Assembly (NCBI GenBank): GCA_022828135.1 | Contig: JAJEJB010000049.1 | Coordinates: 6,504-70,503, forward strand | Direction of reading: 5' to 3' | Source of the DNA: Acidimicrobiia bacterium | Lineage (GTDB): Bacteria; Actinomycetota; Acidimicrobiia; Acidimicrobiales; Aldehydirespiratoraceae | DNA: 64,000 bases | Shown: piece after piece, positions 47,995-63,669 of the stretch | Layout of the letters: each line of letters opens with the position of its first letter | Position numbering within the stretch: the stretch's first letter is position 1 | Program-made: the position numbers and the translations under genes | Notes under the pieces: generated by a model | What the model was told of the DNA's origin: nothing | The model's input: the letters and a program-made list of their open reading frames with translations, nothing else | Database searches by the model: none

Positions 47995-48528
47995 TCATCG
48001 CTCCCAGGCCCGTGTCCATTTGTCGCGGACCTCGGCCGGCAACCGGCTCGCCGCGTCGAGTGCCTTCTCGACAACCTCCTCGAGTGTCGGAGTTGGAGTT
48101 GATGACCCGAGTTGAGGAGCGATCCACCCCGACGATTCGATGAGTGGCGCTATCTCGTCGACCCGCGCTTCTAGCTGGTCGTCAACCAAGAGTAGGTCGA
48201 CCACAAGAGATACAGCAGTCGATTGTGTGCACCGGGCACCTTGCTCATTGAAGAGCAGTCCGTACATCCCAGCTACCTGCTCTCGGACGTCCGCGAGCTG
48301 ATCAAGCATCTTGATGGACGCTCGTTTTGTAAGGACCTCTTGACAGCTCGACTGAATGCGGCGAATCAGCCGAGTCTCGCATCCGAGGATGCCCAAGCCC
48401 TCGGCGTCGCTGTCGGACGCCGAACCGTCCGACAGACCTTCCTCGTCAGGGTCGAGGGTGTCGAGCCCGCGATCGAGTACCCCGAGCGCTATCGCGCTGC
48501 CTACCGCGCCGGGTTGGTAGGCGTCCAA
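47995..48528 (-). CDS. hypothetical acidic protein; start uncertain
   Basis: 177-aa ORF with a TTG start and protein-like composition, immediately downstream of the Abi_C-like gene. No motif recognised. Confidence 0.4.
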   Translation of the reverse strand: MDAYQPGAVGSAIALGVLDRGLDTLDPDEEGLSDGSASDSDAEGLGILGCETRLIRRIQSSCQEVLTKRASIKMLDQLADVREQVAGMYGLLFNEQGARCTQSTAVSLVVDLLLVDDQLEARVDEIAPLIESSGWIAPQLGSSTPTPTLEEVVEKALDAASRLPAEVRDKWTRAWER

Positions 48529-49042
48529 GCATCCATCGCGACCAGACGATTGGGGGCGTCGGTGGCGATCCGTGCTTGCTCTTCGACCACCGGGGTAGCT
48601 TGGCCCGTCCGTGCCCGGTACCGACCGCGTTTCGTAGCTGACCCAGTTCCGTCATGAGGCCCTTCGCGGACTGAGCCATCTTCCTCACCGCGTCATCCGA
48701 GCCGGCAAGGCCCTCACCGGGTTGTCGCTCGACCGCCTTGTGCGCCGCGGTGATTATCGAGGTGAAATCAGAACTGTCGCTCCGTATCCGACCGCGTACG
48801 TCGAGCACGACACGAGCCACGGATTCGGCAAGTTCCTTGGCGCAACCGATGACAGCGGAGAGGTCTCCGCGGCTCCGCGCATCATCCAGCCGCTCGGCAT
48901 GCGCCGAGATGGCAGCGCGGTGCTCGTCGTCCAGTTCCGAAGGGAGATCGATCTCGCTAAAGGTCACCGAGCCATTCTGGCGCGCGTGCCCCGCCTTCCC
49001 GAACCAGCCACTCGATCCTGGAAGGACGCAGGGATGGCCCAT
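48501..49042 (-). pseudogene. Abi_C-like HEPN-motif protein, interrupted by a 1-nt frameshift in a C4 run (48592-48595)
   Basis: The frame from ATG 49042 reads ...AKELAESVARVVLD...LGQLRNAVGTGHGRAKLP (Rx6H). After the C-run only the -1 frame stays protein-like (PVVEEQARIATDAPNRLVAMDAW..., stop at 48501). Confidence 0.55.
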
Positions 49043-49082
49043 AGTCGCAGCCTGCAGATGTTTGGCGACGTACGATCCGAGT

Positions 49083-49907
49083 GTGACCACGAAGCTGGTG
49101 CCGCAGTTCGATGAGCCGGTTTTTCGAGGCATCGCGGATGTCTTGGGCGCGACCGAGGACGGGCTCACCGGGGCCGAGATCGCACGAACACTGGTCCAGG
49201 TCCGCGCCCCCGATGTGAGTCCGACCATTACGAAGCGCCATCGGCTCTTCGACGCCCTCGCCGACCGGCAGAACAGGGACGGCGCTGGCAACTGCGTTGT
49301 AGCGTTCATGACGGCGGCTATGGCACCAGTCCGTTACCGCGACAACCCCGCCGCCTTCTCCCGTCGGCAGGACGAACTCAATCGAGTGCTGATCCACGCC
49401 GGCTACTGCATCACCGACGAGGGCAAGGTGGGGCGCGTCAGAGGCGGCAAGGCCACGACGCTGGATCAGGCGGCAGAGCGCGCGGGCACTATTCGCACTG
49501 AGTTGCGTCGTAGAGGCACCCACCCGGACCTGCTCCGCTACTGCACCATCGAGTTGCTGCAGAAGAACAACTTCCATGCTCTGCTGGAGGCGGCCAAGAG
49601 CATCCCTGATCGGATCCGGTCCCTGACCGGGCGGACCGGCGACGGAGGCGCATTGGTGCAGGCCACCCTTACGAACCGCAGCGGGCCGATGCTTGCAATA
49701 AACGCCGGAGCTACAGAGACCGACCGCAACGAACAGTCGGGATTCGCCAACCTCGTCACGGGACTCCTCGGGCTCTACCGCGGCCCCACAGCCCACGACC
49801 CCAGGCTGCACCGGGCCGTCAGCGACGAGGAACTACTCGAAGCGTTGACAGCCATGTCGATGGTACATCGTCGCCTCGACGGCGCGAGCGTCAAGAAATC
49901 CCCATGA
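49083..49907 (+). CDS. TIGR02391 (Hypoth_Ymh)-like HEPN-motif protein
   Basis: C-terminal LLQKNNFHALLEAAKSIPDRIRSLTG..DGGALV...NEQSGFANLVTGLLGLYRGPTAHDP (Rx4H) matches the family pattern as I recall it. The GTG start at 49083 is tentative. Confidence 0.65.
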   Translation: MTTKLVPQFDEPVFRGIADVLGATEDGLTGAEIARTLVQVRAPDVSPTITKRHRLFDALADRQNRDGAGNCVVAFMTAAMAPVRYRDNPAAFSRRQDELNRVLIHAGYCITDEGKVGRVRGGKATTLDQAAERAGTIRTELRRRGTHPDLLRYCTIELLQKNNFHALLEAAKSIPDRIRSLTGRTGDGGALVQATLTNRSGPMLAINAGATETDRNEQSGFANLVTGLLGLYRGPTAHDPRLHRAVSDEELLEALTAMSMVHRRLDGASVKKSP

Positions 49908-50284
49908 TCCGAAGCCCCGCCGTAGACAGGCCCGCCAATCGACGAGGCGCACGCCAGAAGCCTGAGCCTGAGCTGCTGTGCTCGCGCCGACCAACTCTCG
50001 AGTCTTGGCCGTGCACCGGTACCTGGGTCGGAGGCTCGACGCTAGATCGAATCGCACCTCTGGCCAGGACTTCCACAATCACTCGCCGCTGGACTTCGAG
50101 GCTAAGGGTGATCCCGACCACATGGCCGAACTCTCGTCAGCCATCTAAACAGGTTTCTCGAAGAGCGTGCGCCGCATCTTCTAGCAGGCTGCTGAAATAC
50201 GCGGGTTTGGCGACATCTGCACCCCTCTGACCTAGGGTTTTGTGTTGGCGAAACATGAGATTCGGTACTTTTTCAGCACCCCTG

Positions 50285-51400
50285 CTAGTGGTGTGTCGCG
50301 GGTTTGGTTGCGCGGTCTAGGGCGGCTGGGGCTCGTTTGACTTTGTCGATGACGGGTTGGGCTTGTTTGGTCCAGCGCAGGGGCTGGGGGTCGTGGTTCC
50401 AGTGCGCGGTCCAGTGTTCGATGGCGTGTTGGACCTCGGCGACGGAGCTGAAGGCTCGGCCTTTGAGGGCTTTGCGGGCGAGGATCGAGAACCAGCACTC
50501 GACGAGGTTGGCCCAGCTGGCGCTGGTGGGGGTGAAGTGCAGGTGCCAGCGCTCGCGGCGGGGGTCCGACAGCCATTCGCGCACCGGCTCGGACTTGTGG
50601 GCTGAGACGTTGTCCAATATGACGTGGACATGGAGGTGGCGCGGGGTGTGGCGGTCGATCTGCTTGAAGAACGCGAGCACGTCGTTTCCGGTGTGGCGGC
50701 GGCGGGTCTGGTGCAGCACCTCTCCGGTGGCGACGTTGAGGGCGGCGAACAGGTCGGTGGTGCCGTTGCGGCGGTAGTCGTGGGTGAGGGTGCGGTTGCG
50801 GCCCGGGCGCATCGGCAGCGACGGCTGGGTGCGGTCGATGGCCTGTATCTGGGTCTTCTCGTCGAAGCTGAACACCGCGGCCCCCTCGGGGGGCTTGAGG
50901 TACAGGCCGACCACGTCGTTGAGCTTGGCCTCGAAGTCGGGGTCAGCAGACAGCTTGAACACGTCGGCGCGCCACGGGCGCAGCCCCCGCTCGCGCCACA
51001 CCCGCGCCACGATGTCCTTGCCGACGCCGTGGCGGGCCGCCATCGAGCGCGTCGACCAGCACACAGCCCCCGCGGGCGGCTCGCCGAACAGCGTGTCGGA
51101 CACGATCTCCGCCTCCTCGGCCGCGTTCAGCGACCGCCGCGGGCCCCGGCCCGGCGCGACCGTGCCCAGCCACCCCAGCCCGCCCGCGGCGAACCCCCGC
51201 CGCCACGCCCGCACCGTGTTCGGCGCCACCCCCACCCGCCGGGCCGTCTCCTCGTTGGCCGCGCCGTCCGCGGCCAACAACAGCGCACGCGCCTGGCGCA
51301 CCACCCGAACCGGCTCCGACACCGAACGCGACAGCCGCTCCAACTCGGCGCGGTCCTCGCCTGAAACCGCCAACGGCGGCGCAATCATGCTCATACCCAC
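50285..51400 (-). CDS. IS630-family DDE transposase
   Basis: N-terminal HTH region, then FSFDEKTQ, ILDNVSAHK and ANLVECWF (DDE triad context). Confidence 0.9.
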   Translation of the reverse strand: MGMSMIAPPLAVSGEDRAELERLSRSVSEPVRVVRQARALLLAADGAANEETARRVGVAPNTVRAWRRGFAAGGLGWLGTVAPGRGPRRSLNAAEEAEIVSDTLFGEPPAGAVCWSTRSMAARHGVGKDIVARVWRERGLRPWRADVFKLSADPDFEAKLNDVVGLYLKPPEGAAVFSFDEKTQIQAIDRTQPSLPMRPGRNRTLTHDYRRNGTTDLFAALNVATGEVLHQTRRRHTGNDVLAFFKQIDRHTPRHLHVHVILDNVSAHKSEPVREWLSDPRRERWHLHFTPTSASWANLVECWFSILARKALKGRAFSSVAEVQHAIEHWTAHWNHDPQPLRWTKQAQPVIDKVKRAPAALDRATKPATHH

Positions 51401-51442
51401 ACACTAACCAACCCCGCAACCAAACACAAGACACACCACTGG
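50285..51442 (-). mobile_element. IS630-family insertion sequence (about 1.16 kb)
   Basis: The single transposase ORF spans almost the whole element. Imperfect terminal inverted repeats at 50285-50315 and 51412-51442 match at about 25 of 31 positions, including AGTGGTGTGTC and TTTGGTTGCG blocks. Confidence 0.8.
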
Positions 51443-51490
51443 CAAGTGCCAACGCATTGGTTGGAGGGGGGAAGGCCTCCCAGACTCGGG

Positions 51491-53794
51491 TCAGGTGGGG
51501 TTGTCTTGGTCGCTGAGGTAGAGGATGTCGCCCCTGACTTCCAGTCGTTTGCGCTCGCCTGCTTCGGGCAAGAATGCTTCGGCGATCTCGAGAGGGATCG
51601 GAATGAAGGTTCGATCCTTCGTGAGGATGGTTGACGTGATTCCGGGGCCGCCGCCGGCGGATTCGGATACAAGCCCGGGACAGAGGATGTCGTAGTAGAG
51701 GCCGAAGCGTCCGGAGTGGTGCTGGAACACGAACACAACTTTCCTGCCTCCCCAGACGACCTCCGTTGTATGTGGCTGCAGAAAGAAGTCGCCTCTTTGC
51801 CGCTGCACCCGGTCGCTCAGCGCCAGGAAGCAGGCGTATCCGTTCAACGCTGCTGGAGTGTCGCTCGTGAGGATGAGTGCATTGGTCTCTTCGTTCCTCC
51901 GGTCGATCGCGGGCCTTGGGGCGAAGGGCTCGGGAGCCGCGTCCTCGGGTTCGCCCTCGATCGCTCCAACGACTGATGAGAGGGGCTCGGTGCCGGCGGG
52001 ACTCACCTCGACGACCGATCTCGCGGTGTCGGCGACCTGTTTCGTTGCCTCTGCTAGCGTCAGTCGTCCCGCGCGAAGTTCCTCGAGGATTTCCTCAAGG
52101 TCCGCCTTGTCCTCCAGTTCGTATTCGAACCACTCTCGGTTGGAACGGAGGTGCCGCAAGAACGCTTCCGCTCCTTGCCTAGTGCTGCTGGGCACGAGTT
52201 CGGATATTCGCTGGAAGATGGATGAGCGCACGAAATCCTTCACAAAAGGCCCGAACGCTCCGAAATCGTCGCGATAGAGAGCTAGTAGGGGTGCAACGCT
52301 CGTGGAATTGGGGTCCAAGTGGATGAGAGGTGGCGCCTGCGTATCGTCGACCAGCAAGGGCAGGCCTCCTGAGATCACGCCGAATCGAATCTCGACTCCG
52401 AGAAAGTAGTCCTCCTCAAGTATTCGGGTAATACGAGTCGCGAGTGCCGAGTGGGCGTAGCTCTGGCTCGCAAGTGGTAGCTCCTCAGTGACCCGGGGCC
52501 TGTCGTCGACTTCCTGAACCCCTTTCGCGGCTAGGTAGCCTTGCTCGCAATCGCGCCGCGGTGCTCTCCGAGAAAGTACGACCAGCGGTTCGTCTTCGCT
52601 CGCGTATGCCTGGATCACCGAGGCATCGCGGCCGTCGTAGTAGCGGAGCCCGGCATGGTTGACCACCGACTCGATGGGCTGGGGCTGTCCAGCGGGGCGA
52701 GGGGTCACTTCTAACGGCCCGCAGAGTTCGAACTGCCTCGTGGCAGCGATCCACCGGAGGAAGCAGTCGTTCGCGAAGGACTCGGGATGCTGCGCTGCGA
52801 TCGGCGAGACGAGGTTGTCGAGGGCCGAGAGGACTTGCTGGAGCAACTGGCTTGAGGAAGCGTCAAGTGCCTCGCGGCCTGCCGTGGGGCTGAAGAACGG
52901 AAGGTCGACGACTCCGCCCCAGCGGTATGTGGATGGCGCACCAATGGTGGCGAGGCCGAAGCCTGACCGGAGGGTGCGGATTGCGTTGCGGTCTTGCAAC
53001 AGGACAATCGAGCCGGGACGGCCGATGCCGACTGCCGCCTTGATGTTGTCGAGAACGATGCGGAGCTCCCCCGAGCCCATGCCGATGACTTCCAAGTCGC
53101 CCTGAAGGATCCCGGGAATCGAGATGGCCGGACGGTGTTCTACCCAGGCATGCCTCTCGGATGGGAGGGCCTCCCGATGTCCAGAACCACTGATGTTCTC
53201 ACCGTTGAAGAGAACTGGGACGCCTACAAATTCGACAAAGTCTCCGAGGTACTGGCGAGCTTCTGGGACGGTTACGCGGCTGTCATCGGCGAGGTGGGCG
53301 CGCACGATGGTTCCTGGATGGCCGATCGGATTGATCGGTGTAACTGAGATACTCTCGGTATCGGTCGACAAGTCCGCTCTGCGTGCCGAGGACAGGGTGC
53401 GCTCGCCTGTTGCAGCTGACTCGCTCTCGACCGAGAGCTCGTCTGCGACGCCGAAATTCGCCAGCGCTCCGATACCGAAGGTCCCTACGACACCGGCAGC
53501 GCGAGCAGCGTCGGTGTTCTTGCTGCTTCTTCCCGCATGCCAGAAGTGCGTCTCTATCTCCTCGGCGGTCATTCCGATGCCGTTGTCGGTCACTGTGATC
53601 AGGTCGTCGCTCACCGTTACCTCGATCGAAGGAGCGAACTCGTCCGGTCGCGCTTCGCGCATTCGGATCGCATCAAATGCATTCTGTGTATTTTCCCGGA
53701 GAAGCGCGAGCGGTGACTGATAGATCTGGTCAGCTAGGAGTTTGAGGATCCGCGAGACCTCGACCTTGAGAGCGATCTTCCTAACTGGTTGCAT
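51491..53794 (-). CDS. Hsp90/GHKL-type ATPase (HATPase_c_3-like N-domain) with a roughly 570-aa uncharacterised extension
   Basis: N-box LRENTQNAFDA, G1 box DNGIGM, G2 box VGTFGIGALANFG. ATG at 53794 lies 9 nt after GAGGAGGA and overlaps the upstream stop by 14 nt. Confidence 0.8.
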   Translation of the reverse strand: MQPVRKIALKVEVSRILKLLADQIYQSPLALLRENTQNAFDAIRMREARPDEFAPSIEVTVSDDLITVTDNGIGMTAEEIETHFWHAGRSSKNTDAARAAGVVGTFGIGALANFGVADELSVESESAATGERTLSSARRADLSTDTESISVTPINPIGHPGTIVRAHLADDSRVTVPEARQYLGDFVEFVGVPVLFNGENISGSGHREALPSERHAWVEHRPAISIPGILQGDLEVIGMGSGELRIVLDNIKAAVGIGRPGSIVLLQDRNAIRTLRSGFGLATIGAPSTYRWGGVVDLPFFSPTAGREALDASSSQLLQQVLSALDNLVSPIAAQHPESFANDCFLRWIAATRQFELCGPLEVTPRPAGQPQPIESVVNHAGLRYYDGRDASVIQAYASEDEPLVVLSRRAPRRDCEQGYLAAKGVQEVDDRPRVTEELPLASQSYAHSALATRITRILEEDYFLGVEIRFGVISGGLPLLVDDTQAPPLIHLDPNSTSVAPLLALYRDDFGAFGPFVKDFVRSSIFQRISELVPSSTRQGAEAFLRHLRSNREWFEYELEDKADLEEILEELRAGRLTLAEATKQVADTARSVVEVSPAGTEPLSSVVGAIEGEPEDAAPEPFAPRPAIDRRNEETNALILTSDTPAALNGYACFLALSDRVQRQRGDFFLQPHTTEVVWGGRKVVFVFQHHSGRFGLYYDILCPGLVSESAGGGPGITSTILTKDRTFIPIPLEIAEAFLPEAGERKRLEVRGDILYLSDQDNPT

Positions 53795-55220
53795 CGTTGA
53801 GCATCCTCCTCGCGGCAATGGCGGCGACCAGATCGTTGAGCGTCGCCGGGTCTAGGAGCGGCGCTCCGGCTTCTAGTTGTGCTGCGGCGTCATCGAACCG
53901 ATCGGCTTCAAGAAGCATGGAGACAGCCATAATGGCTTCGTCCGGGGTTTCCGGATTGCTGAGAACCTCTAGGAGTTCATCATGGCGTCCAAGACCGCGG
54001 AGCGCCTCGATCTCGACTTGGCGCTTGATTTGCGATGGGATAGAGCCGGGGAGTCGGCCGAGGAGTTCCAGTGCCTTCTCGAACTGACCACTCCACGCTG
54101 CCGTCATTGCGTCGTCAAGTAGTTGCGCGGCCGTGGGTGCTCGAGGACGTTCGGGCGAGGGCGGGAGGCTCAGCGTCATGAACGTATTGCCGCCAAAGTC
54201 GGCCCGAGGCATGCCGGAGAACACGCCGCCAGGCGACATTGCGCGTACGTGAACGGTGAATGTCGCTTCATCGGGATCAATAACGACAATGTTGAACTGG
54301 CGGCGTTCGCCTGCTGGTAGCTGGTCGTCGCCCACCGCCAGGGATCCCGCGCTTGCGACGACCATTGAGGTCAGGTGAGGGAGACGCAGCTCGTACGGTG
54401 CCGCATCCGGGTAGTGCTGATGCCCGTGCAGCCCGACTGTAAACCCGAAGTCGATGAGTCTGTGAGTGACGCGCTGGTCCATGTAGTCGTGGGCGCGCGG
54501 CCCGCCCAGAAGGCTGTGGTGCCAGACTGCGACTGCCACGGGCGCGCTCGACCCAGCAAGCAGCTTCTGCGACGAGGCCAGCGCTGAGGGGTCGATGTCG
54601 CCGGCATGGCAGAAGCAGTCGTTTCCGTACCAGGATGCGAAACCGGCGACCGCCAAGCCTAAGGACGGATACTCGGCAAAGAGAAGGTCTCCGTCGCCGT
54701 GCCCGAGCGGGCTCGGGTCGAGACCCGCGTAGAAGTCGGCCCGGAACTTCCGAAAGTGGTCGCAGCGCGATTCGTAGAGAGCACTATCCGCTACCTCATA
54801 CGGCCGCTGGTCTTCCCAGTTCCACCGGAGTCCAGAGTCAGGGCGCAGGGCCTCATCTGCAATCCCACTCGGGCAGTCAGACAGCGGCTTCATCGCGTCG
54901 CGAGCGCGGCTCCAGTCAACATCGTGATTGCCGGGAACGATGACCACACGTGACCGGTCCGAGTCGACGAACTCGGCCGCGAGACGGACCAAGAAGTCCC
55001 CAGCTTCGGCATACTGGTCCTCGATCTCATCGCCGGGGCTCGGGCCTCCAGCAGAAACACCTTGGATCAAGTCACCGCTCACGATGATCAGGTCCGGCCT
55101 CCGTATGCCGTCAAGCTCCCAACGAGCGGCGTCGCTCGACATGGCTGTCAGCAGCTCGTCGTTGCCCACACGGGGGCCCGCGGTCCTATGCAGGTCCGAA
55201 ATATGAAGCAGTGCCGGCAC
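53781..55220 (-). CDS. calcineurin-like metallophosphoesterase with a C-terminal helical (TPR-like) region
   Basis: Motifs in order: ISDLH, VSGDL, VPGNHD, VWHH, GLHGHQH. The C-terminal 100 aa or so is Ala/Leu/Glu-rich and helical-looking. GTG start. Confidence 0.8.
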   Translation of the reverse strand: MPALLHISDLHRTAGPRVGNDELLTAMSSDAARWELDGIRRPDLIIVSGDLIQGVSAGGPSPGDEIEDQYAEAGDFLVRLAAEFVDSDRSRVVIVPGNHDVDWSRARDAMKPLSDCPSGIADEALRPDSGLRWNWEDQRPYEVADSALYESRCDHFRKFRADFYAGLDPSPLGHGDGDLLFAEYPSLGLAVAGFASWYGNDCFCHAGDIDPSALASSQKLLAGSSAPVAVAVWHHSLLGGPRAHDYMDQRVTHRLIDFGFTVGLHGHQHYPDAAPYELRLPHLTSMVVASAGSLAVGDDQLPAGERRQFNIVVIDPDEATFTVHVRAMSPGGVFSGMPRADFGGNTFMTLSLPPSPERPRAPTAAQLLDDAMTAAWSGQFEKALELLGRLPGSIPSQIKRQVEIEALRGLGRHDELLEVLSNPETPDEAIMAVSMLLEADRFDDAAAQLEAGAPLLDPATLNDLVAAIAARRMLNDATS

Positions 55221-55414
55221 ACCTCGACTCTAGATGTGAGCGCCACCGCGAAGGTGAGCGATCACGCGAAATCGCGTTCTGCGACCATCCGAATCTCTGA
55301 GTTCGGGTAGCGAGCTGCTTGATGTGGGACGGTGGTGGTGGCGTCGCGGATCTCGTATTCGACGGGTGCGAGCATGCCGAAGGACATCTCTTGGCTCGGC
55401 AGGGATCGGGACGC

Positions 55415-56584
55415 CTACCTGAGTATGTCGAGCACGGATTCGGCTATGGCTTGGCCCAGTAGTGGCGGTACGGCGTTGCCGATCTGTTTCGCAATCTGAG
55501 TTCGTGAGCCGGCGAATGAGAAGTCGTCGTCGAACGATTGCAGCCTTGCTCCCTCACGCAGGGTGAGCGCCCGGTCCTGGAACGGGTGGATGCACTTGTT
55601 GGAGGCGGGGTGCACGAAGTTGACCGTGAGGGTGACAGCAGGCTCGTCCGGGTCGAGGCGCGAGTAGCATGACGAGAATCCCGAGGTGATCAGGTGTTGT
55701 GGCACAGAGCTGATGTTCGTGCCCGAATGGCGGATGATCTCCAGCATGCGCTCGGAGTGGCCTGTCGCCACATGCAGACTGAGGCGTTGGGAGCGTCGGC
55801 GCCGGGCTGCCTGATAGTCGTTCTGTGGCGGGAGGTCGTACTGGTCTGCGGTCTTGCCCGCGGCGACTGGGGGGAGGTCTCCGATCGCCTCCATCGCAGT
55901 TAGCGCGTCGGGCAGTTTGGGCTCGTCGAACATGAATAGTCCCGGCTCGTCGGGTGGCGGCGGAGGCGCGAGTCGCCGTGCCCGGTCGCGTACCCCGATC
56001 GTCTTGAACTCGCCTGCGTGAGTCGGTGAGGGGAACTTCGCTCGGGTGCCGTGCTGGGCGCCGATCATCACGAGACGCTCCCGCTTTTGGGGAACGCCGA
56101 AATGGGCGGCGTTGATGATCCTCCAGTCCGACGTGTACCCGAGCCCGTCGAAGCACTCCTGGATTTGCTCTATCGTGGTCCCTTGATTGTGGGTGGCCAA
56201 GCCCACGACGTTTTCCATGACGAACACCTGTGGCCTGAAGTAGTTGACGTAGGCAGCGAACTCTTCAAAGAGGGAGTTCCGCGGGTCGTCCTCCATTGCG
56301 GACCGGAATGGCCGAATCGACGAGAAGCCCTGGCACGGCGGTCCGCCCACGATGACGTCCACCTCACCGCGGGCTAGCCCTGTCCGGTGTGCCACCGATC
56401 GAAGCCGCACTTCTCGTATGTCCGCTTCCAGGGCCACCGACCGCGCGTGATTGAGCCGGAAGGTCTCCACAGCGACCGGCAGCACGTCGATGCCGTATAC
56501 GACGCTGAAGGCGCCCGTGTTCTCGAACCCCTTCGAGAATCCACCTGTCCCGCAGAACAGGTCCATCACCTTCATGCTCGCCAT
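55415..56584 (-). CDS. DNA (cytosine-5)-methyltransferase
   Basis: Motif I DLFCGTGGFSKGF, IV GGPPCQGFS, VI VMENV, VIII GVPQKRERL, X GNAVPP. ATG at 56584 lies 7 nt after GGAGGTG; the track start at 56692 overlaps the divergent gene. Confidence 0.9.
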   Translation of the reverse strand: MASMKVMDLFCGTGGFSKGFENTGAFSVVYGIDVLPVAVETFRLNHARSVALEADIREVRLRSVAHRTGLARGEVDVIVGGPPCQGFSSIRPFRSAMEDDPRNSLFEEFAAYVNYFRPQVFVMENVVGLATHNQGTTIEQIQECFDGLGYTSDWRIINAAHFGVPQKRERLVMIGAQHGTRAKFPSPTHAGEFKTIGVRDRARRLAPPPPPDEPGLFMFDEPKLPDALTAMEAIGDLPPVAAGKTADQYDLPPQNDYQAARRRRSQRLSLHVATGHSERMLEIIRHSGTNISSVPQHLITSGFSSCYSRLDPDEPAVTLTVNFVHPASNKCIHPFQDRALTLREGARLQSFDDDFSFAGSRTQIAKQIGNAVPPLLGQAIAESVLDILR

Positions 56585-56619
56585 CCGGAGCCACCTCCAT
56601 TCCTGAGAAATCAGCAGTT

Positions 56620-56643
56620 CTGGAGAGACTATAGTCTCTCCAG
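56620..56643. promoter_or_regulatory. perfect 24-bp palindrome CTGGAGAGACTATAGTCTCTCCAG, a C-box-like operator in the methyltransferase/nuclease divergent intergenic region
   Basis: Perfect self-complementarity. It contains GACT..AGTC half-sites around a TATA centre, and lies 34 nt upstream of the HTH-nuclease start. Confidence 0.6.
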
Positions 56644-56676
56644 TGGCTCCCGCAGTGACACCTACGATCATAAGTC

Positions 56677-57582
56677 GTGGATGCGACATCACCGGGGGAC
56701 CCGGCAGAGGAGGCAGCGAGAGCCTTCGCTCGCGCTGTGGGCACAGTCGTCGCCCGGCTCCGCGGAGAACGCGGTTGGTCGCTAGAGGACCTGGCCGATG
56801 AAGCGGGCCGTCACCGGACCTACGTCGGGCTGATCGAGCGAGGCGAGCGACACCTCAGCGTCGCGTCGGCCTTTCGGCTTGCTCAAGCGCTCGGCCTGTC
56901 TCTCTCGGACCTCATCAACCTTGCGGAGGCGCATGTTTCGGGAGCGCGGGTCCCGGTCCGATTTCGGCTACGGTCCTCGCCGCCGAACGCGACCCGCGGA
57001 GTCGAGGCCGTACAGCAAGTCGCCGGATTGGAGGAGACCTGGATCCCCTCCGCCATCGAGGCGACCTACGCGACGCTGGACCGTATCGACGAGCAACTCG
57101 TCAACACAGGGTCACTGCCTCTCGCTGAGGTCGTAGAACTCGCCAACCTGTCTGCGATCGTCGGCAACCTGCTGAGGTCGGCCCTGGAGGTGAACTCCCG
57201 CGGGGTCTACAAGAGCAACGCCCCTCACACGTTTCCAGATCTCGTGTCGCAGTCCGGCACGTCCCAAGGCTTGGAGATCAAGATCGCCCTCGAAGGCAAC
57301 ATGCCTAAGGGCCACTTGCCCAAGCCGGGGGCACACCTCATTTGTCGCTATGTGCTCGCTGAACGGGATGGGACCTACTCTCGCGGAAATCGGGGCAACG
57401 TCGTATGGATTTGGGAGGCCCGACTCGGAGAACTAACCGAAGACGACTTCAACACCTCCAACACGCCCGGCGACTCAGGCAAGACAGCAGTGATAAGCGC
57501 CGAAGCCCTATACCGACTCACCTGCATCTACTACGACGGGCGGTTCCGTCCCATCGCCAGACCCCGTGCCGGCCACCACTAG
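56677..57582 (+). CDS. XRE-type HTH fused to a PD-(D/E)xK restriction-endonuclease-like domain
   Basis: HTH WSLEDLADEAGRHRTYVGLIERGERHLSVASAFRLAQALG, then FPD-x11-EIK (PDLVSQSGTSQGLEIK). Divergent from the m5C methyltransferase. Confidence 0.6.
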   Translation: MDATSPGDPAEEAARAFARAVGTVVARLRGERGWSLEDLADEAGRHRTYVGLIERGERHLSVASAFRLAQALGLSLSDLINLAEAHVSGARVPVRFRLRSSPPNATRGVEAVQQVAGLEETWIPSAIEATYATLDRIDEQLVNTGSLPLAEVVELANLSAIVGNLLRSALEVNSRGVYKSNAPHTFPDLVSQSGTSQGLEIKIALEGNMPKGHLPKPGAHLICRYVLAERDGTYSRGNRGNVVWIWEARLGELTEDDFNTSNTPGDSGKTAVISAEALYRLTCIYYDGRFRPIARPRAGHH

Positions 57583-57799
57583 GACTCAGGAGGGTCGATC
57601 TGAGACTCTGGTCATGCATCCCGGAGGACGGGTGCGGTTATCCCTCGTCACCCGCTGCCTCAACGACCCCGAACTCCTAAGTTGATCGACATATCCGGTC
57701 TACCGGGCTACACGAGAGTTGACCGGACCACTCGTTGTCAGATGGGACTGGTGATCTGACCGGGAGGGGACTCAGATCGTCGCCATGCTCCTTCGGGCC

Positions 57800-58588
57800 T
57801 CAGACCGTCGCGACCGTGCCACCCTGGTCCCACTCGGTGCTCAGGTTTCCGAAGGCTCGGTGGAAGGCGAGCATCGTGTCGCCGCAGTGCGATCCGGGGC
57901 CACAGTGCGGGACGCCGGCGGGGCGGAAGAAGTAGGTGCCCGCCCCGGCGGTGATCATCTCGTCGGTCTCGGTGGACCGCTCCCGCAGGACAGCCTCGCC
58001 GTCGATCACGAAGCACTCCTCATGGTGGGGATGGTGGTGCCAGCCGCCGTCGTCGTGGTCCCATTGGTGGGCGCCGCCGAGCCAGACGTCGCCGACCGGG
58101 CCCCGGCCCAGAGGCTTGACGTGCCGACCGGGCATCTCTGGAACCGGGATCCAGTCCTGCTCGGAAGCCCGGCCGGGCACCAGCTCGGCCGGCTGACCCA
58201 TGAAGGTCGGGTCGTACCGCACCGGAGCGGACGTCATAAGCAGGGCGGCGCCGTCGGCTGTGATCCGCAGCCGGGGGATGGTCCGCCCCTTCGGGAGGTG
58301 GACGTAGTCCCCGGCCTCCAGGGGGTGCGGTCCGGCCTCGATCGAGCCCTGGATCACGAAGAGCTCCACGTCGGCGGTGAACGCGCCCCGTGCCTCCGTT
58401 CCCCAGCCCGCCCGCAGGCGCACCAGACGGGTGCTCGAGCCCCTCAGGTCGGTCGACAGGATCCGGGCCCCGAGGGAGCCGTCGATCCCGGGGATGGTCA
58501 TCGGTCTGGTCGGCAGCGAGGCGTCTTGGATCCCGGCCAGGTGCGTGGCCGTTCTGTCGACCAGAGCCGGGTCTATGCGGTCTGCCAT
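57800..58588 (-). CDS. cupin-domain protein (probably bicupin)
   Basis: Two cupin-like segments (GDYVHLPKG; HHHPHHEECFVIDGEA...GTYFFRPAGVPH). Confidence 0.65.
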   Translation of the reverse strand: MADRIDPALVDRTATHLAGIQDASLPTRPMTIPGIDGSLGARILSTDLRGSSTRLVRLRAGWGTEARGAFTADVELFVIQGSIEAGPHPLEAGDYVHLPKGRTIPRLRITADGAALLMTSAPVRYDPTFMGQPAELVPGRASEQDWIPVPEMPGRHVKPLGRGPVGDVWLGGAHQWDHDDGGWHHHPHHEECFVIDGEAVLRERSTETDEMITAGAGTYFFRPAGVPHCGPGSHCGDTMLAFHRAFGNLSTEWDQGGTVATV

Positions 58589-58625
58589 GGCCCTCAGCCC
58601 GGGCCCCGGGTTGCCGCTCGGCCTC

Positions 58626-59156
58626 TCAGGCGTCGAGCACTTGGTAGCCGGCCTCGGCCAGGTCGACCACCGGCGGCAGCGTGGACCACGGGAAGTTGAT
58701 CCACAGGTCGGTGCGTCGCCACACGTAGTCGCACTTCACCAGCGAATGCGACTTCTCATAGAGCACGGCCGAGCGGACCTCGGCCACCTCATCGAGGCAG
58801 TAGTCGCGCACCAGCTTGAGCGTGTGGCCGGTGTCGGCCACATCGTCGGCGATCAGGATCTTGGACCGGCGGTGGTCGACCAGGTCGAGTTGGGGAGGCA
58901 GCACTACCGGGACCTCCAGGCGCTCGCCGACCCCGGTGTAGTACTCGCAGTTCATCACGTAGACGTTCTTCACGGAGAGCGCGTAGCCCAGCGACCCGGC
59001 GCAGAACAGCCCGCCCCGGGCGATGGCCAGGATCATGTCTGGCCGGTACCCGTCGTCGGCGACCATGTGCGCCAACTCGCGGACGCCGCGCCCGTAGAGC
59101 GCCCAGTCCATCTCCTCCCTTGCCGTACCGTCGTTCACCGGTCGCATCCTCCTCAT
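58626..59156 (-). CDS. phosphoribosyltransferase (purine PRT-like)
   Basis: PRPP-binding motif KILIADDVADTGHTL. Start is ambiguous (59156, 59147 or 59111). Confidence 0.75.
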   Translation of the reverse strand: MRRMRPVNDGTAREEMDWALYGRGVRELAHMVADDGYRPDMILAIARGGLFCAGSLGYALSVKNVYVMNCEYYTGVGERLEVPVVLPPQLDLVDHRRSKILIADDVADTGHTLKLVRDYCLDEVAEVRSAVLYEKSHSLVKCDYVWRRTDLWINFPWSTLPPVVDLAEAGYQVLDA

Positions 59157-59297: not shown

Positions 59298-61040
59298 TCA
59301 GCGTCGCACATGCCTGCGGTCAAGGTAGGCGAGGTCCAGGGCGTGGGTATTGTGCTCCGGTCGCCTAGTGGCCAGCTGTGCGTCCCGGCGCGCGTCGGTG
59401 ACGATGTAAGGGACCGACACCCGGCCTTCGATGGCAGCTTCGATGGCCTCGATCGCGATGCGCACTTCCTCGTCGGTGGCGCCGGGACGATCAGGGTCCA
59501 CGGGGATCCGCAGGCTCCGGGTCTCGTGGCCGGGATCCACACCGATCTCAACGCGGTTGGCCCGCATGTCGACGTCGACGAAGTGCACCAGCCAGTCAAG
59601 GCCGCCAGGCTCTTGGGCCGTGGGGCCGATGCCGAGGATGTCGGAAACCTCGTCGCTTGCGTCTCGCAGCTCGAAGTAGCTGTGGGCAGCGCCTGTGCGC
59701 AACTCCAAGTCGGCGTTGGCCGCGACGAGTTCGACGGTGGGTGCGCTGGGAGCGTCGTCGCCCTTGAGCCACACCCACGCGCCGAACGTGTCGTAGTGGT
59801 CGACGGCTAGGCCGGCGATGCGGCTCATCTCGATCTCGAGTACCTCGTCAAGCAGCGCTTGCAGCACCGGGATGCGGGCCAGGCGGTGCCGGGCCTGCGG
59901 CCGCGTCACCCCATACTGCTCCATGTAGAAGTCCTCGGTGACCGCCGACGAGCCGGCCATGTCCGGTTCGAGCTGATAGGAACTCAACGCGTCGAGGGCT
60001 GTCTGGACTCCCGATGGCTCGCAGAAGCCCGGCCAGGATTCCGGCTCCGGCGTGCAGAGATGCATGAATGACGGCGCGATGACGCTGGGCGCGTGGCACT
60101 CCTCGATGTAGTGGTCGAGGCCGACGTAGTAGCCGTCGGACTGGACTCCGCCCACTTCCACGAGATCGCCCGTCGTCATCGGTTCACCGTCTCGCACCCG
60201 AAGCTGTTGCGTCTCCACCGTGAAGGCGACTTCGGGCTGTCCCAGCCTGACGAAGGTACGTCGGAGCGCCGTCGGAGTATGTCTGCGAGTATCGATGCCG
60301 TCGCGGACAAAGAAGAACTCGGGAGTCTCGCGGCGGTGTAGAGGAGTCCTGTCATCCGGTAGCCACAGATAGGTGCAGCGTCCCTCGATCTCTAGCACGC
60401 CCCAGTCGGAGATGGCATTGCTACCCAAGGAGTCGTCGGTCGGAATCATCCCTGCAACGGGCGGTGGACTGCTCGGCAAGTCGGGAGGATGACTGGTCGA
60501 AGGCCCCATCCACGCCACCCAGAACGAGACGTGAGCGAGGCACACATCGGGAGCGTCGGTGTCAGATCCGCGCCAAGTCCGGTGAAACTCATTGAATTCT
60601 TCGCCCTTCTGATTGAACTCCTGTCGCCAGCCTTGAACACCCAGGACGGCCACATGATCACCGGGTGATACTTCTATCGCATTGCCCACACGCAGAGTTT
60701 CATCGCGCTGATCATAGGTGGTCGTCGTGAGGGGCAGCCTCAAGAAACTACGGATGGGCCGGTCTTCTTCGCTCAATTCGACACCATCGCGATGAGTTAC
60801 ATCAAGGTACGCGCACCCGATGTGATCAAGCGCGAGATAGCCATGCCATATCTGGTCGGCATGCCATCCGCCTGGATCCCATTCATACAGTTCGACGATG
60901 GATCCAGCTATCTCACGGTCATCCTTGGGGCCATTGGGTGAACAGCCAGCGGCTACGGGAATTGCGAGTACTAATCCCAACACGAGAGCGCGGTGCCACC
61001 GAACGGTGGCACTCATTTGCTCCCAAAGAGTATGTTTCAC
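59298..61040 (-). CDS. lipoprotein of unknown function
   Basis: LVLGLVLAIPVAAGCS lipobox. 580-aa ORF with no recognised motif. Confidence 0.55.
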   Translation of the reverse strand: MKHTLWEQMSATVRWHRALVLGLVLAIPVAAGCSPNGPKDDREIAGSIVELYEWDPGGWHADQIWHGYLALDHIGCAYLDVTHRDGVELSEEDRPIRSFLRLPLTTTTYDQRDETLRVGNAIEVSPGDHVAVLGVQGWRQEFNQKGEEFNEFHRTWRGSDTDAPDVCLAHVSFWVAWMGPSTSHPPDLPSSPPPVAGMIPTDDSLGSNAISDWGVLEIEGRCTYLWLPDDRTPLHRRETPEFFFVRDGIDTRRHTPTALRRTFVRLGQPEVAFTVETQQLRVRDGEPMTTGDLVEVGGVQSDGYYVGLDHYIEECHAPSVIAPSFMHLCTPEPESWPGFCEPSGVQTALDALSSYQLEPDMAGSSAVTEDFYMEQYGVTRPQARHRLARIPVLQALLDEVLEIEMSRIAGLAVDHYDTFGAWVWLKGDDAPSAPTVELVAANADLELRTGAAHSYFELRDASDEVSDILGIGPTAQEPGGLDWLVHFVDVDMRANRVEIGVDPGHETRSLRIPVDPDRPGATDEEVRIAIEAIEAAIEGRVSVPYIVTDARRDAQLATRRPEHNTHALDLAYLDRRHVRR

Positions 61041-61061
61041 TGTGCCGTCCGACTAATCGAG

Positions 61062-61451
61062 TTATCGCACAGTCCGGTCTCCGGAGGTAAGCACCGAAAC
61101 TCCGAGAAAGTTCTCGACCTCCAGAATTGCAGAAAAGTGCGCGCTGACTCCGTGTGCCGTACACGAAGTGCTTGTCCCGCCCATGTGCAGGCCGTAAGCG
61201 ATACCATGACGGAACCAGGGTCCGCCACTGTCGCCTGGACATTGGCGCAAATAGTCTCCGGTTACCCGCACGAATACGGCTGCACAGTCAGTGGGTTGCT
61301 TCCTGCTGTTCAGGCAAGCATCTTTCCCTACGCTCCGGTAATCGGGCGAATAGTCGATTCTGTCCACAGTGCCACAGGTTGTTCCGGTTCGCTTCCCGGT
61401 GTGGCACACGAAGTCTCCTACCATGGCCAAGCGTGAGCGGCGACCGCTCAC
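61062..61451 (-). pseudogene. 5'-truncated S1 (streptogrisin/alpha-lytic type) serine protease fragment
   Basis: Only the C-terminal barrel is present (VCHTGKRTGTTCGTV...CPGDSGGPWF...GG...C...). The His/Asp half and the pre-pro region are absent, and another gene's stop lies 44 nt upstream. Confidence 0.55.
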
Positions 61452-61494
61452 ATCGCACTCGATATTCGATTGGGCACCACATAGATAGGCCCCC

Positions 61495-61788
61495 TTACAG
61501 CGATTCGAGGTGCTGGATGAGGTGGTCGTCTAACTCGATTCGACGCGGCAGCAGCAGAGCGGCGTTCACGGACTCGGGTTCCACCCTTATGGCATGCTTC
61601 CGCCACAAACGGTCAACGATGGAAGCGAGCGAGATCGGACAGCACTGATCGTCTTCGAACTCGAGATAGATGCGCGCGTCGCGTACGAGGCTCTCGCAAG
61701 TGGTGACTCCGAGAATGATCGGACTCCAACCCCGGTCTGTTCGAAGTATAGCCCTTTGTCCGTCGCTCAAATCCGCAAATTCGTTCAT
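61495..61788 (-). CDS. small hypothetical protein
   Basis: ATG at 61788. The 97-aa product looks globular (MNEFADLSDGQRAILRTDRGW...). The longer track ORF adds a basic low-complexity N-terminus. Confidence 0.35.
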   Translation of the reverse strand: MNEFADLSDGQRAILRTDRGWSPIILGVTTCESLVRDARIYLEFEDDQCCPISLASIVDRLWRKHAIRVEPESVNAALLLPRRIELDDHLIQHLESL

Positions 61789-62061
61789 GCTGATGCCCGG
61801 ACATGCGGGAGGCTGTCGGGCGCCTCTCCTGAGGGCGGGCTGAGCCTGACGGGTATCTCGATGCCAGAGGCGCCGCTTCTCTCGATCCCCCAAACGAGTA
61901 GCGTCGGCACCCGGCCTAGCTGTCTCGCTCGCCATGGGAAGATCAAGAACAAGCACGGCACCGAACGCGACAACGCTTAGCATAGAGCCACCACAGCTAG
62001 CTCTCGGAGATCGGATGGATGTGCGGTGTGCTCTGTGTGCTGAACACCCACGCAGGCTCTG

Positions 62062-62667
62062 CTACGCCCTGCAATTAATGTCCTTCTGGTTCTCACGAGT
62101 GGCCCTCTTGTCGAACCACCAACGGATGTTGACCACAGCGGTGACTCTTGTTCGCCAAGTGGTCGCTTCATACGAATTGCAGCGAACGTGTACAGGCACC
62201 TGCACCCCTGAGTATCCCGTGTGTGAAGAGTATACGGACTTTGACTTTGTAGCCATCGTACGCCAGAAGCACTGCCGGGGAGAGGGCCCGGGATAGCAGT
62301 AGTACTGCTGTAGTTCCACGGTTACGTTGGCCTTATCGGGGCAACTGCTCTTGTCGGTTGATGTGTTCCTCCAAGATCCATGTCCTGAGGCATCACCACC
62401 TGATGGATGTGGGTTATGGGCTTCCGCGACGAACCTGCATGAACGCCCGGGCCACTGCGCCCCCTGCTTCACGCCTTCCACGGCGTCGTATGCGGGATCG
62501 GGTTCGGACGGCTGTATGTCACTGGGCTCAGACTGGCTGGCCTGGGCTGGTGTGGCGGTGGCAGCGGCCGGCGTGGCGTTGGAGGCACATAGCAGCGCCG
62601 CGATTGCAAGCACCAAGACGGCCTTCTTGTGCCAAGGGCGGTCATGTCTGGACAGGCTCATCTTCAT
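62062..62667 (-). CDS. secreted Cys-containing hypothetical protein
   Basis: ATG at 62667 follows GAAGGAG. Signal-peptide-like KKAVLVLAIAALLCASNA. The track extension to 62829 runs through the tandem repeats. Confidence 0.5.
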   Translation of the reverse strand: MKMSLSRHDRPWHKKAVLVLAIAALLCASNATPAAATATPAQASQSEPSDIQPSEPDPAYDAVEGVKQGAQWPGRSCRFVAEAHNPHPSGGDASGHGSWRNTSTDKSSCPDKANVTVELQQYYCYPGPSPRQCFWRTMATKSKSVYSSHTGYSGVQVPVHVRCNSYEATTWRTRVTAVVNIRWWFDKRATRENQKDINCRA

Positions 62668-62770
62668 CTGGACTCCTTCATTCGTGTTGACGGCATGACT
62701 ACGCGTATCAGCCTGATGGGGCACACGGAGCCGGATCTGGTGCCAACCTTGTGGCGCCCGATGCCGATTC

Positions 62771-62820
62771 CAGGCACTGGTTGGCACATGTTGGCACACG
62801 TTGGCACTGGTTGGCACCCT
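62771..62820. repeat. tandem 10-bp repeat: TTGGCAC at exact 10-bp spacing x4, plus one degenerate copy
   Basis: TTGGCAC at 62781, 62791, 62801 and 62811; cAGGCAC at 62771; an inverted copy GTGCCAAC at 62740-62747. Confidence 0.85.
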
Positions 62821-62848
62821 CTCGGACACCCGCGTGCATGTACCTACC

Positions 62849-62938
62849 GGGCGCCTCGCGCGTGTATGGAAGATCGCAGACGCGTATGAACGCCGGGCCG
62901 ACCGCGACTTGGGCGCCTCGCGCCTGTATGGAGGATCG
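62849..62938. repeat. 28-bp direct repeat pair (2 mismatches), 62-bp period
   Basis: GGGCGCCTCGCGCGTGTATGGAAGATCG at 62849-62876 and GGGCGCCTCGCGCCTGTATGGAGGATCG at 62911-62938. Weaker CGCGTGxATG-like copies at about 62830 and 62881. Confidence 0.8.
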
Positions 62939-62952
62939 GTAGAGTCCCCAGG

Positions 62953-63669
62953 GTGCAGTCTGCGGAATGGCCGTTATCGGATCGGCGGCTTCTGGAGCTG
63001 GCGTGCGGCCGGATCCTCAGCGCGTCCCGGGCCATGGCGAGGGCCTACGATTTCGACGTCTCGCCCGGGCTCCACGACGAGCCTTGGACCGCGGCCTATC
63101 ACCGCGATGCTGTGGGCCTGTACGCCGAGGCGTTGCCGCCGTCCTATCAGGGTGACATCGAATCGCTGTTCCGGCACTGCGCCGAGTCGATGGACCAGGG
63201 CTCGATTCCCGCGTCGCTCGCCGGGGAGTGGGTGATCGTCAGGAGCTACCTCGCCAACGCCGCCGACTCGATTGCCGAGATGCTGGAGGGCGGCAACCTC
63301 CGCCGCCCCGAGCCGGCCAGCGGCGGCGGGATCGACACAAGCGAGGAGCCTCCGCCGGTGGTGCGATACGACCGGCTTGCGGCACTGACGACGCAAGCGG
63401 GCGCGCTCCGCTTGCAGTCGGCCGCCTCAGCGGTACAGACCCATGCGGCCGGCGGGCCGGGACCCGAACTCGATGACGACCAACTGCGTCTGCTCGAGGG
63501 TGTCTCGGCGGGTCTCTCCGTGTCGGACCTCGCCGCGCAGTTCGGGTACTCGCGGCGAAGCATCTTCCGAGAACTGTCCAGGCTCTGGGACGCGCTGGGC
63601 GTGCCCGACCGCGCCCACGGCCTGCACAAGGCCGAGGAGCAGGGCCTGCTTGAACAACGGCAAAACTGA
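62953..63669 (+). CDS. LuxR/GerE-type HTH transcriptional regulator with an uncharacterised N-domain
   Basis: C-terminal LSVSDLAAQFGYSRRSIFRELSRLWDALGV is GerE-like. GTG start. Confidence 0.65.
   Translation: MQSAEWPLSDRRLLELACGRILSASRAMARAYDFDVSPGLHDEPWTAAYHRDAVGLYAEALPPSYQGDIESLFRHCAESMDQGSIPASLAGEWVIVRSYLANAADSIAEMLEGGNLRRPEPASGGGIDTSEEPPPVVRYDRLAALTTQAGALRLQSAASAVQTHAAGGPGPELDDDQLRLLEGVSAGLSVSDLAAQFGYSRRSIFRELSRLWDALGVPDRAHGLHKAEEQGLLEQRQN

Follow-up and report, generated by a model that had tools for sequence, protein, structure and literature searches.

In eukaryotes, the phosphatase PP5 contains tetratricopeptide repeats (TPR) and is docked on Hsp90. Among prokaryotic immune systems, metallophosphoesterase (MPE) effectors are a recent addition: the DefensePredictor study validated the first metallophosphatase defence systems, DS-8, a fused MPE-NACHT protein whose defence requires the MPE as well as the NTPase, and DS-9, which consists of an MPE and a HAD phosphatase (PMC13092281). 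Here we describe a two-gene cassette from a 64,000-nucleotide stretch of DNA of an Acidimicrobiia bacterium (GenBank assembly GCA_022828135.1, contig JAJEJB010000049.1, positions 6,504 to 70,503 of the forward strand), which we refer to as the window. The cassette is composed of gene A, encoding a 479-aa MPE, and gene B, encoding a 767-aa GHKL ATPase of the Hsp90 type. An initial examination of the letters alone (the sequence-only reading) had proposed the pair as a candidate undescribed defence system, a proposal that is supported by conserved synteny, by the neighbourhoods in which the pair is found and by the lack of a match to any named model. The pair is probably an undescribed immune system, best classed as a variant, with an Hsp90-family ATPase and an MPE-TPR protein, among the two-gene defence systems already known to combine an NTPase with an effector. 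On balance, we favour the view that it is a self-contained, horizontally mobile module that would most likely defend against phages or other mobile elements through an NTPase sensor or switch and an enzymatic effector.

Both open reading frames (ORFs), the 14-nt overlap between them and all the motifs quoted in the sequence-only reading were found again in the sequence and its translations, and the gene calls on the metagenome contig containing the window give an identical pair of 479 and 767 aa (Table 1). Read directly from the sequence, a GAGGAGG stretch lies 10 nt 5' of the gene B ATG, and this stretch and the overlap suggest that the two genes are translated in a coupled fashion. Homologues number more than 2,000 for the gene B ATPase and more than 1,200 for the gene A MPE, and the motifs of both proteins are unchanged down to 25-29% identity, indicating that these are genuine genes and not chance ORFs. 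No sigma-70-type promoter consensus was found in the 194-nt region upstream of gene A.

The two families expected from the motifs, PF13589 and PF00149, were both found above their cut-offs. Gene B matches PF13589 (HATPase_c_3) with E 4.3e-8 and 33.7 bits (cut-off 25), and contains the boxes E34-NTQNAFDA42, D70-NGIGM75 and G104-TFGIG109. In an alignment of 18 sequences reaching down to 24% identity, residues E34-N38-D41, D70-G72-G74 and G104-G107-G109 are invariant, as is typical of the GHKL/Bergerat fold, and this invariance across the family is consistent with the earlier impression that the ATPase motifs look catalytically competent. Sequence matches of gene B to known families are confined to its first ~200 residues, and the best of them are always to Hsp90. 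The NCBIfam model "HSP90 family" is matched by the N-domain with E 6.5e-26 and HtpG with E 8e-18, while profiles of the family match PDB entries of TRAP1, Grp94, HtpG and Hsp82 over their N-domains with E 1e-14 to 7e-23; MutL and topoisomerase VI matches have E above 1e-3. The assignment of the Bergerat boxes to the Hsp90 type was therefore upheld. The equivalog models for HtpG and HSP90 (NF003555 and NF010683) gave 64.2 bits (cut-off 371) and 90.9 bits (cut-off 455), in both cases over the N-domain only, and by sequence gene B is a paralogous family distinct from the HtpG/HSP90 orthologues.

For the rest of gene B, some 570 aa that the sequence-only reading could not assign to any family, the predicted structure gives most of the information. 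An AlphaFold2 (AF2) model based on 36 homologues has a mean predicted local distance difference test score (pLDDT) of 68.6 and is good to about residue 530 and poor beyond. With this model of modest pLDDT as a query, the 50 best Foldseek matches in the PDB are all TRAP1, Hsc82/Hsp82, Hsp90, Grp94 or HtpG structures, either full-length or comprising N-terminal plus middle domains, with a best E of 2e-19, 490-820 aligned columns and TM-scores of 0.35-0.50. There is no N-domain-only structure among these 50, and no MutL, MORC or GyrB. The invariant positions outside the N-domain (same 18 sequences) include G294 and P303-T-A-G-R307-E308. When the window protein is read against yeast Hsp82, whose sequence was checked against PDB entry 2cg9, the pattern GVVD-x9-RE-xL is common to 'GVVDLPFFSPTAGREAL' and 'GVVDSEDLPLNLSREML'. 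This shared spacing puts R307 at the position of the Hsp90 catalytic arginine R380, and the PTAGRE loop of gene B thus resembles the Hsp90 catalytic-arginine loop. The model therefore suggests that what follows the N-domain is largely an Hsp90-type body and not an unknown extension.

The part of the 570 aa that did remain without a family is the last ~130 residues, a conserved, beta-rich and family-specific domain. Pfam scans of C-terminal sub-regions at E up to 10 returned nothing. Its family-wide invariants, W681, F690, Y701 and P732, are aromatic or structural, so that no second catalytic site is seen in gene B; its His and Cys residues are conserved in the close clade and not more widely, and no nuclease motif is found among the invariants of the 18-sequence alignment. 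By analogy with Hsp90, dimerisation or partner binding would be the likeliest role for this domain.

Gene A matches PF00149 with E 5.5e-13 and 50.2 bits against a cut-off of 21.5. The five MPE motifs (D9-L-H11, G49-D50, G97-N-H-D100, H234/H235 and G266-H-Q-H269) follow in the order of the PF00149 superfamily and are invariant down to 26% identity, as are the family-specific positions R132, W135, R152 and R307-Q-x-N310. The AF2 model (mean pLDDT 83.8) shows an MPE core up to about residue 350 and then seven helices, in agreement with the helical C-terminal tail noticed earlier. Foldseek aligned this tail with the TPR proteins PcrH, SycD, Sec72 and MamA (E 5e-3 to 5e-2), and Pfam gave TPR_19 below its cut-off (E 0.0038); a TPR-like assignment of the tail is reasonable but not firm. 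Over its whole length, the best PDB fold match is Bacillus subtilis YydB (9a6c_B, E 2e-13, 543 columns), followed by Lmo2642 and purple acid phosphatases. No Mre11/SbcD structure and no PPP enzyme is found among the top 50 PDB matches, and among viral fold models (BFVD) the matches are generic MPEs, the only place where SbcD-like ones occurred. The gene A fold thus resembles phosphodiesterases and phosphatases more closely than Mre11.

Neither protein, nor those of four distant pairs, reached any defence model of PADLOC 2.0 or NCBIfam 20.0, and in the literature we found no description of an MPE paired with a GHKL, Hsp90 or HATPase_c_3 protein in defence; this agrees with the sequence-only reading, which could match the domain pair to no named system. 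Its closest described counterparts are DS-8 and DS-9, with a similarity that is weak and confined to a domain. The MPE domain of gene A matches DS-9A with E 6e-10, and that of the Pseudomonas aeruginosa homologue with E 4e-12 over the entire domain, so that by sequence it is distantly homologous to a validated anti-phage phosphoesterase (NF053862; the corresponding E for NF053861 is 6e-4). The logic of an NTPase plus an MPE is shared with DS-8. Nevertheless, gene A reaches 38-46 bits against the DS-8/DS-9 models, where the cut-offs are 420 and 790. DS9_1 scored 38.5 bits against 420, and the partner is a GHKL ATPase and not a HAD phosphatase; for DS-8 the score was 17.7 bits against 790, and there is no NACHT domain. 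Here the ATPase is of the Hsp90 type and a separate polypeptide, and the MPE has a TPR-like tail.

The Hsp90 chaperones themselves (HtpG, TRAP1, Grp94, Hsp82) share with gene B the GHKL N-domain motifs; the predicted model of gene B can be aligned with entire Hsp90 chains, and its PTAGRE loop has the spacing of the Hsp82 catalytic loop. Gene B differs from them in its size of ~770 aa and its beta-rich ~130-aa C-terminal domain, and it differs from a housekeeping chaperone in being always beside an MPE gene, patchy in distribution and mobile. The pairing of an Hsp90-type ATPase with a calcineurin-superfamily phosphoesterase bearing a TPR module is reminiscent of Hsp90-PP5, and PDB entry 8gae is among the Foldseek matches of gene B. 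However, PP5 belongs to the PPP family, with the motifs GDxHG/GDxVDRG/GNHE and an N-terminal TPR domain, whereas gene A has SDLH/SGD/GNHD and a C-terminal TPR-like domain, and gene B homologues have C-termini that are neither conserved nor MEEVD-like, which makes this likeness an analogy only. MORC/paraMORC, MzaB and BbrUII/HgiDII are also GHKL ATPases of defence islands and are weakly matched in the N-domain, but gene B has no fused nuclease, and no MutL/MORC-type entry is found in its Foldseek top 50. MZA is a five-gene system; MzaB scored 11 bits against 850, and no Mza partner model was matched among the eight window neighbours scanned with PADLOC. BbrUII/HgiDII scored 39.7 bits against 550, over the N-domain only, and the pair has no conserved methyltransferase. 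SbcCD/Mre11-Rad50 also combines an MPE enzyme with an ATPase partner, but that partner is of the ABC/SMC type and not GHKL, and the nearest PDB folds of gene A are not Mre11/SbcD. As for YydB, the supplement to PMC10090944 lists it as co-eluting (0.90/0.86) and cross-linking with YydD, a protein named in the same yyd series, which shows that MPEs of the shape of gene A can work in complexes. No sequence-level similarity between YydB and gene A was detected, and YydD was not among the best 60 PDB matches listed for either Hsp90-like family profile, nor was it retrieved by a search with an AAA_15 protein.

The distribution of the pair carries much of the argument for a module. A scan of one genome per species gave 24 loci, nearly all in metagenome-assembled genomes (MAGs), with gene B identities of 59-90%. 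The close clade includes Acidimicrobiia, Dehalococcoidia, Caldilineaceae, Gemmatimonadota, Acidobacteriota (Bryobacterales and the candidate Marinacidobacterales), Alphaproteobacteria and Gammaproteobacteria, with cross-phylum identities of 59-74%. Many isolate names in this clade are ones that we take to be sponge-derived, and the family is unusually common among the sponge-symbiont MAGs recovered here. Since the close clade (L001-L021) spans at least six phyla at such identities, its distribution implies that the cassette has been exchanged extensively by horizontal transfer within this community. More widely, an exhaustive search with gene B gave 159 clusters (50% identity) at E <=1e-30, a list with many fragments and identities down to ~25%, in which full-length members are ~770 aa long. 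The family comprises more than 2,800 clusters at 90% identity across phyla, and a profile built from distant members retrieved Mucilaginibacter, Arenibacter, Dyadobacter, Changchengzhania, Scalindua and other relatives. It is thus not an actinobacterial family, and occurs across bacterial phyla and on plasmids. Source names for gene B relatives are generic ("ATP-binding protein", "molecular chaperone HtpG", "hypothetical protein"), and RefSeq names the P. aeruginosa pair on pPUV-9 (WP_193826294.1/WP_193826295.1) "metallophosphoesterase" and "ATP-binding protein".

At the loci compared the two genes stay together, and the pair thus passes the synteny check proposed in the sequence-only reading. 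An MPE gene immediately precedes the ATPase gene at 20 of the 21 close loci with a full-length ATPase gene, and a ~480-500-aa MPE gene occupies the same position at all seven distant loci, which are 28-35% identical to the window and include Bacteroidota, three P. aeruginosa IncP-2 megaplasmids and one Rhizobium conjugative plasmid. Elsewhere the junction varies between a 14-nt overlap and a 6-nt gap, a 4-nt overlap being commonest (13-nt overlap to 6-nt gap in the seven distant loci), and over 18 loci the identity of one protein rises and falls with that of the other (Pearson r 0.94). In two loci, a gene for a PD-(D/E)xK nuclease of the DpnII/MboI type lies beside the pair (L032:5766-6515 and L035:4416-5135), upstream in one and downstream in the other. 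The two nucleases are 54% identical, the Hsp90-like proteins only 36%, neither nuclease gene has an adjacent methyltransferase, and the gene is absent from the window and the sponge-symbiont clade; the nuclease may be a third component specific to one subclade. Once, in a distant locus, a small HAD-family hydrolase gene (6108-6473) was seen directly upstream of the MPE gene, which recalls DS-9, where an MPE and a HAD phosphatase occur together.

To survey the neighbourhoods, we ran Pfam and PADLOC on the 116 ORFs nearest to the cassette at 21 loci. The commonest Pfam families are N6_N4_Mtase (5 occurrences) and Type_ISP_C, Eco57I, ResIII, DDE_Tnp_1 and Arm-DNA-bind_3 (3 each), followed by other transposases, resolvases and integrases, and the PADLOC picture is alike. 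Defence or mobile-element genes lie within ~10 kb in 10 of 10 annotated neighbourhoods inspected, and one further locus has none; the annotation comes from Pfam matches of the called genes or from product names in the records. The neighbours include restriction-modification (R-M), CBASS, McrBC and BREX genes, and an enrichment near known defence genes can be stated in qualitative terms only. Near the Dehalococcoidia copy, the best PDB sequence match of an AAA_15/AAA_21 ATPase (L028:2221-3531, +) is PtuA of Septu (E 8e-4), and a Septu-like system may be part of that island. In Mucilaginibacter gossypiicola, a 685-aa HATPase_c_3 protein is encoded immediately upstream of the pair, beside BrxC/PglY (L030:4436-6493, +; no PADLOC match). 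It was considered as a paralogous subunit and set aside, being unrelated to gene B by BLASTP.

The cassette is also a frequent target of insertion sequences (IS). A closely related Acidimicrobiia MAG (L022) has flanks collinear with those of the window at 80-93% nucleotide identity; an ISL3 transposase fragment (L022:2683-3672) there takes the place of gene A and of the first ~590 codons of gene B (window 52019-55276). The window and L022 also differ by the inversion of a 250-bp segment (window 48268-48518). At L021, a Mutator-family IS lies between the two genes, L024 retains cassette fragments only, and at L017 an IS stands in place of gene A, with gene B matching the query in three separate alignment pieces. 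The ORF at the MPE position of L017 was examined as an alternative effector and proved to be an IS transposase, and this locus is therefore a case of disruption and not of effector swapping. Taken together, cross-phylum identity, low G+C, plasmid carriage, location in islands and frequent decay make up the usual signature of defence cargo.

Several points weigh against a defensive Hsp90-MPE module. The assignment to defence is one of guilt by association, since no known defence model is reached. The neighbourhood counts come without a genome-wide background rate, R-M genes are reportedly abundant in sponge-symbiont genomes in any case, and some loci lie among housekeeping or polysaccharide-synthesis genes. 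On the structural side, the quality of the gene B model is poor beyond residue 530, hhalign could align the family profile with yeast Hsp82 over the N-domain only, and a Smith-Waterman comparison of the middle regions scored 26 against a shuffled mean of 30, so that middle-domain homology rests on the predicted fold and a short motif. The TPR assignment in gene A is weak, and in the alignment of gene B homologues there is no conserved acidic MEEVD-type peptide at the C-terminus. With synteny, neighbourhood and mobility as the evidence for defence, we nonetheless consider that a function in defence or conflict of some kind is rather likely, while the specific division of labour between an Hsp90-like sensor or switch and an MPE effector is put forward as tentative.

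It is possible to sketch how such a module might operate. Both proteins would be made together, as the gene junction suggests, and would form a complex in which gene B is expected to be an ATP-driven dimeric clamp and gene A an active MPE docked onto it by the TPR-like tail. The clamp might then recognise a sign of infection, for which a phage protein handled as a "client" is the most plausible candidate; ATP binding and hydrolysis through the catalytic-arginine loop, an activity suggested by the motifs, could alter its conformation. The MPE would thereby be released or positioned to cleave a phosphoester, most likely of a nucleotide type and less likely of a nucleic acid, and phage replication or the infected cell would be stopped. 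If the pair is protective, an Hsp90-family ATPase would join the known immune sensor and motor proteins (STAND, ABC/SMC, AAA+, MORC-like GHKL, helicases), and MPE effectors would have a third, mechanistically distinct setting after DS-8 and DS-9. It is tempting to speculate further that the Hsp90-family clamp is itself the infection sensor, with phage proteins as clients, and switches on the TPR-docked phosphoesterase, although we regard this as rather doubtful. Were it true, prokaryotic defence would have its first system based on Hsp90, and the eukaryotic pairing of Hsp90 with TPR co-chaperones, such as PP5 and the SGT1/NLR immune axis, would have a counterpart in prokaryotes, whether through convergence or through ancestry. 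The echo of the Hsp90-TPR pairing makes chaperone-type client recognition, as a form of pathogen sensing, directly testable in bacteria, and experiments are feasible since the hosts include cultured organisms (P. aeruginosa with IncP-2 megaplasmids, Arenibacter, Mucilaginibacter and Rhizobium).

The same observations can be read differently. The pair could be an accessory chaperone-phosphatase module carried on mobile elements without an immune role, either a specialised Hsp90 whose phosphoesterase resembles a TPR co-chaperone and which serves proteostasis or stress tolerance, or a module acting in counter-defence by destroying nucleotide immune signals. Gene B is after all an Hsp90 paralogue with relatives that several sources name as HtpG, an MPE-TPR protein with Hsp90 mirrors the eukaryotic Hsp90-PP5 pair, and copies occur on conjugative plasmids and beside integrases. 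The concentration of the close clade in MAGs that we take from their names to be sponge-associated would agree with a niche function, and the degradation of cGAMP by MPE relatives such as SMPDL3A (PMC13092281) would agree with counter-defence. A patchy spread, frequent IS disruption and a position between bona fide chromosomal defence genes are, however, features seen more typically in defence cargo. Among the 116 nearest ORFs at the 21 loci there is no conserved stress or chaperone gene, and a homologue of gene B was not found in any of 50,697 phage records, which weighs against a phage-borne role in counter-defence though not against a plasmid-borne one. We judge a non-immune module to be unlikely. 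A restriction-like targeting of foreign DNA, in which a GHKL clamp or sensor, as in MORC, MutL and BbrUII/HgiDII, would act with an Mre11/SbcD-like MPE nuclease, seems to us distinctly improbable; as no methyltransferase is conserved with the pair, such targeting might be modification-dependent (type IV-like). It would account for R-M genes being the commonest neighbours, for the adjacent DpnII/MboI-type nuclease gene of one subclade, and for weak matches of the gene B N-domain to BbrUII/HgiDII (E 2e-10), PADLOC REase_II (E 2.5e-7) and MutL and of the MPE N-terminus to PADLOC "Effector: Endonuclease" (E 5e-7, Mucilaginibacter copy). Yet the N-domain matches fall far under their cut-offs and are confined to the shared Bergerat fold, the Hsp90 matches are much stronger and account for the entire Foldseek top 50, the fold neighbours of the MPE are phosphodiesterases and phosphatases, and Pfam scans found no recognisable DNA-binding domain in either protein.

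In a more specific variant, the pair would supply the restriction activity of an R-M-like operon of three genes, the third being the 5-methylcytosine (m5C) DNA methyltransferase gene upstream of it in the window. Restriction enzymes of the HgiDII type, which have a GHKL domain, do partner with m5C methylases, the genes are co-directional, and the methyltransferase stop codon lies just 194 nt upstream of gene A; the same methyltransferase is also found near the cassette remnants of L022 and L024. Synteny largely refutes this arrangement, which we regard as hardly credible. Relatives of the window methyltransferase adjoin the cassette only in the nearest relatives (L022, L024 and L026), the one beside the IS-disrupted copy of L017 is a distant (30% identical) m5C enzyme, and none of the distant loci has an adjacent m5C methyltransferase gene. 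At L024 the methyltransferase and its divergent helix-turn-helix (HTH) gene flank the cassette on the opposite side, and these two form a conserved unit of their own. The adjacent m5C methyltransferase is therefore not a conserved partner of the pair, and it was rejected as a third component. The preferred reading remains that of a self-contained two-gene defence module.

The surroundings of the cassette in the window are listed in Table 1. The lower-GC segment described in the sequence-only reading is real, with a G+C content of 0.62 for the cassette and 0.69 for window bases 1-48000, and so is the IS630-type element next to gene B; this element is missing from the collinear L022, where window position 51460 joins 49929. 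The supposed type II R-M pair was half right: the methyltransferase is clear, but its neighbour is a protein with a control-protein-like HTH, and no restriction enzyme was recognised beside the methyltransferase. Similarly, of the two HEPN-motif genes reported nearby, the Hypoth_Ymh gene was confirmed, and its match to PD-Lambda-3_B puts a defence gene of known type 1.6 kb from the cassette, with the IS630 insertion in between; the Abi_C ORF on the opposite strand is weaker. Its tblastn match at L001 (30% identity) is a clear Abi_C protein (L001:7458-8369, -; E 5.9e-13) encoded directly upstream of the cassette.

Table 1. Features of the cassette and its surroundings in the window, domains of the two proteins, and neighbours of the pair at other loci.
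Feature	Position	Strand	Remarks
Gene A, 479-aa MPE	53781..55220	-	GTG start
Gene B, 767-aa GHKL ATPase	51491..53794	-	ATG start (53794); ORF list extends to TTG at 53818
Gene A/gene B junction	53781..53811	-	14-nt overlap 53781-53794; GAGGAGG 53811-53805
Intergenic region 5' of gene A, presumed promoter region	55221..55414	-	194 nt; gene calls give only a 41-aa ORF
Gene A domains	MPE aa 1-~350; TPR-like helical domain aa ~360-479	-	AF2 model, Foldseek
Gene B regions	GHKL N-domain aa ~1-200; Hsp90-like middle ~205-500; helical linker and disordered stretch ~500-640; beta-rich C-terminal domain ~640-767	-	Pfam, AF2, Foldseek (predicted)
IS630-family element	49930..51459	-	Transposase 50285-51400; DDE_3 and HTH domains; just downstream of gene B
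m5C DNA methyltransferase	55415-56692	-	PF00145 E 1e-66; PADLOC MTase_II E 1.6e-101
Divergent protein with control-protein-like HTH, 281-301 aa	56677-57582	+	Control_protein E 4.5e-13
Hypoth_Ymh (HEPN) gene	48738-49907	+	PADLOC PD-Lambda-3_B E 1.6e-72
Abi_C (HEPN) ORF	48446-49309	-	Overlaps Ymh gene on other strand; Pfam marginal, 25.6 bits; not in gene calls
Ca. Poriferisocius locus			Integrase; N4/N6 methylase with XhoI
Dehalococcoidia locus			N6_N4 methylase; ResIII helicase; PtuA-like AAA_15 ATPase; transposase
L029			DUF499; DUF1156; OLD-like ATPase; SNF2 helicase
Mucilaginibacter locus			BrxC/PglY (BREX)
Arenibacter locus			CD-NTase with TIR-STING (CBASS); integrase with IS91; McrBC; AAA_21; type I S subunit
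pPUV-9 (P. aeruginosa)			ABC three-component system with DUF3732; YaaC; IS21
Rhizobium plasmid			IS21; PIN

Beyond the HTH gene, the contig gene calls place a cupin/DUF4437 gene at 57800-58588 (-), opposite a 304-aa ORF (57785-58699, +) that matches no family. Given the gene called on the other strand, the 304-aa ORF is likely an artefact of high G+C and probably spurious. Further along, a second low-GC stretch (60000-63000, 58-60% G+C) is observed, with a 580-aa ORF at 59298-61040 (-). This ORF and the smaller ones of the stretch have no Pfam, PADLOC or NCBIfam match, and the stretch may represent further island cargo.

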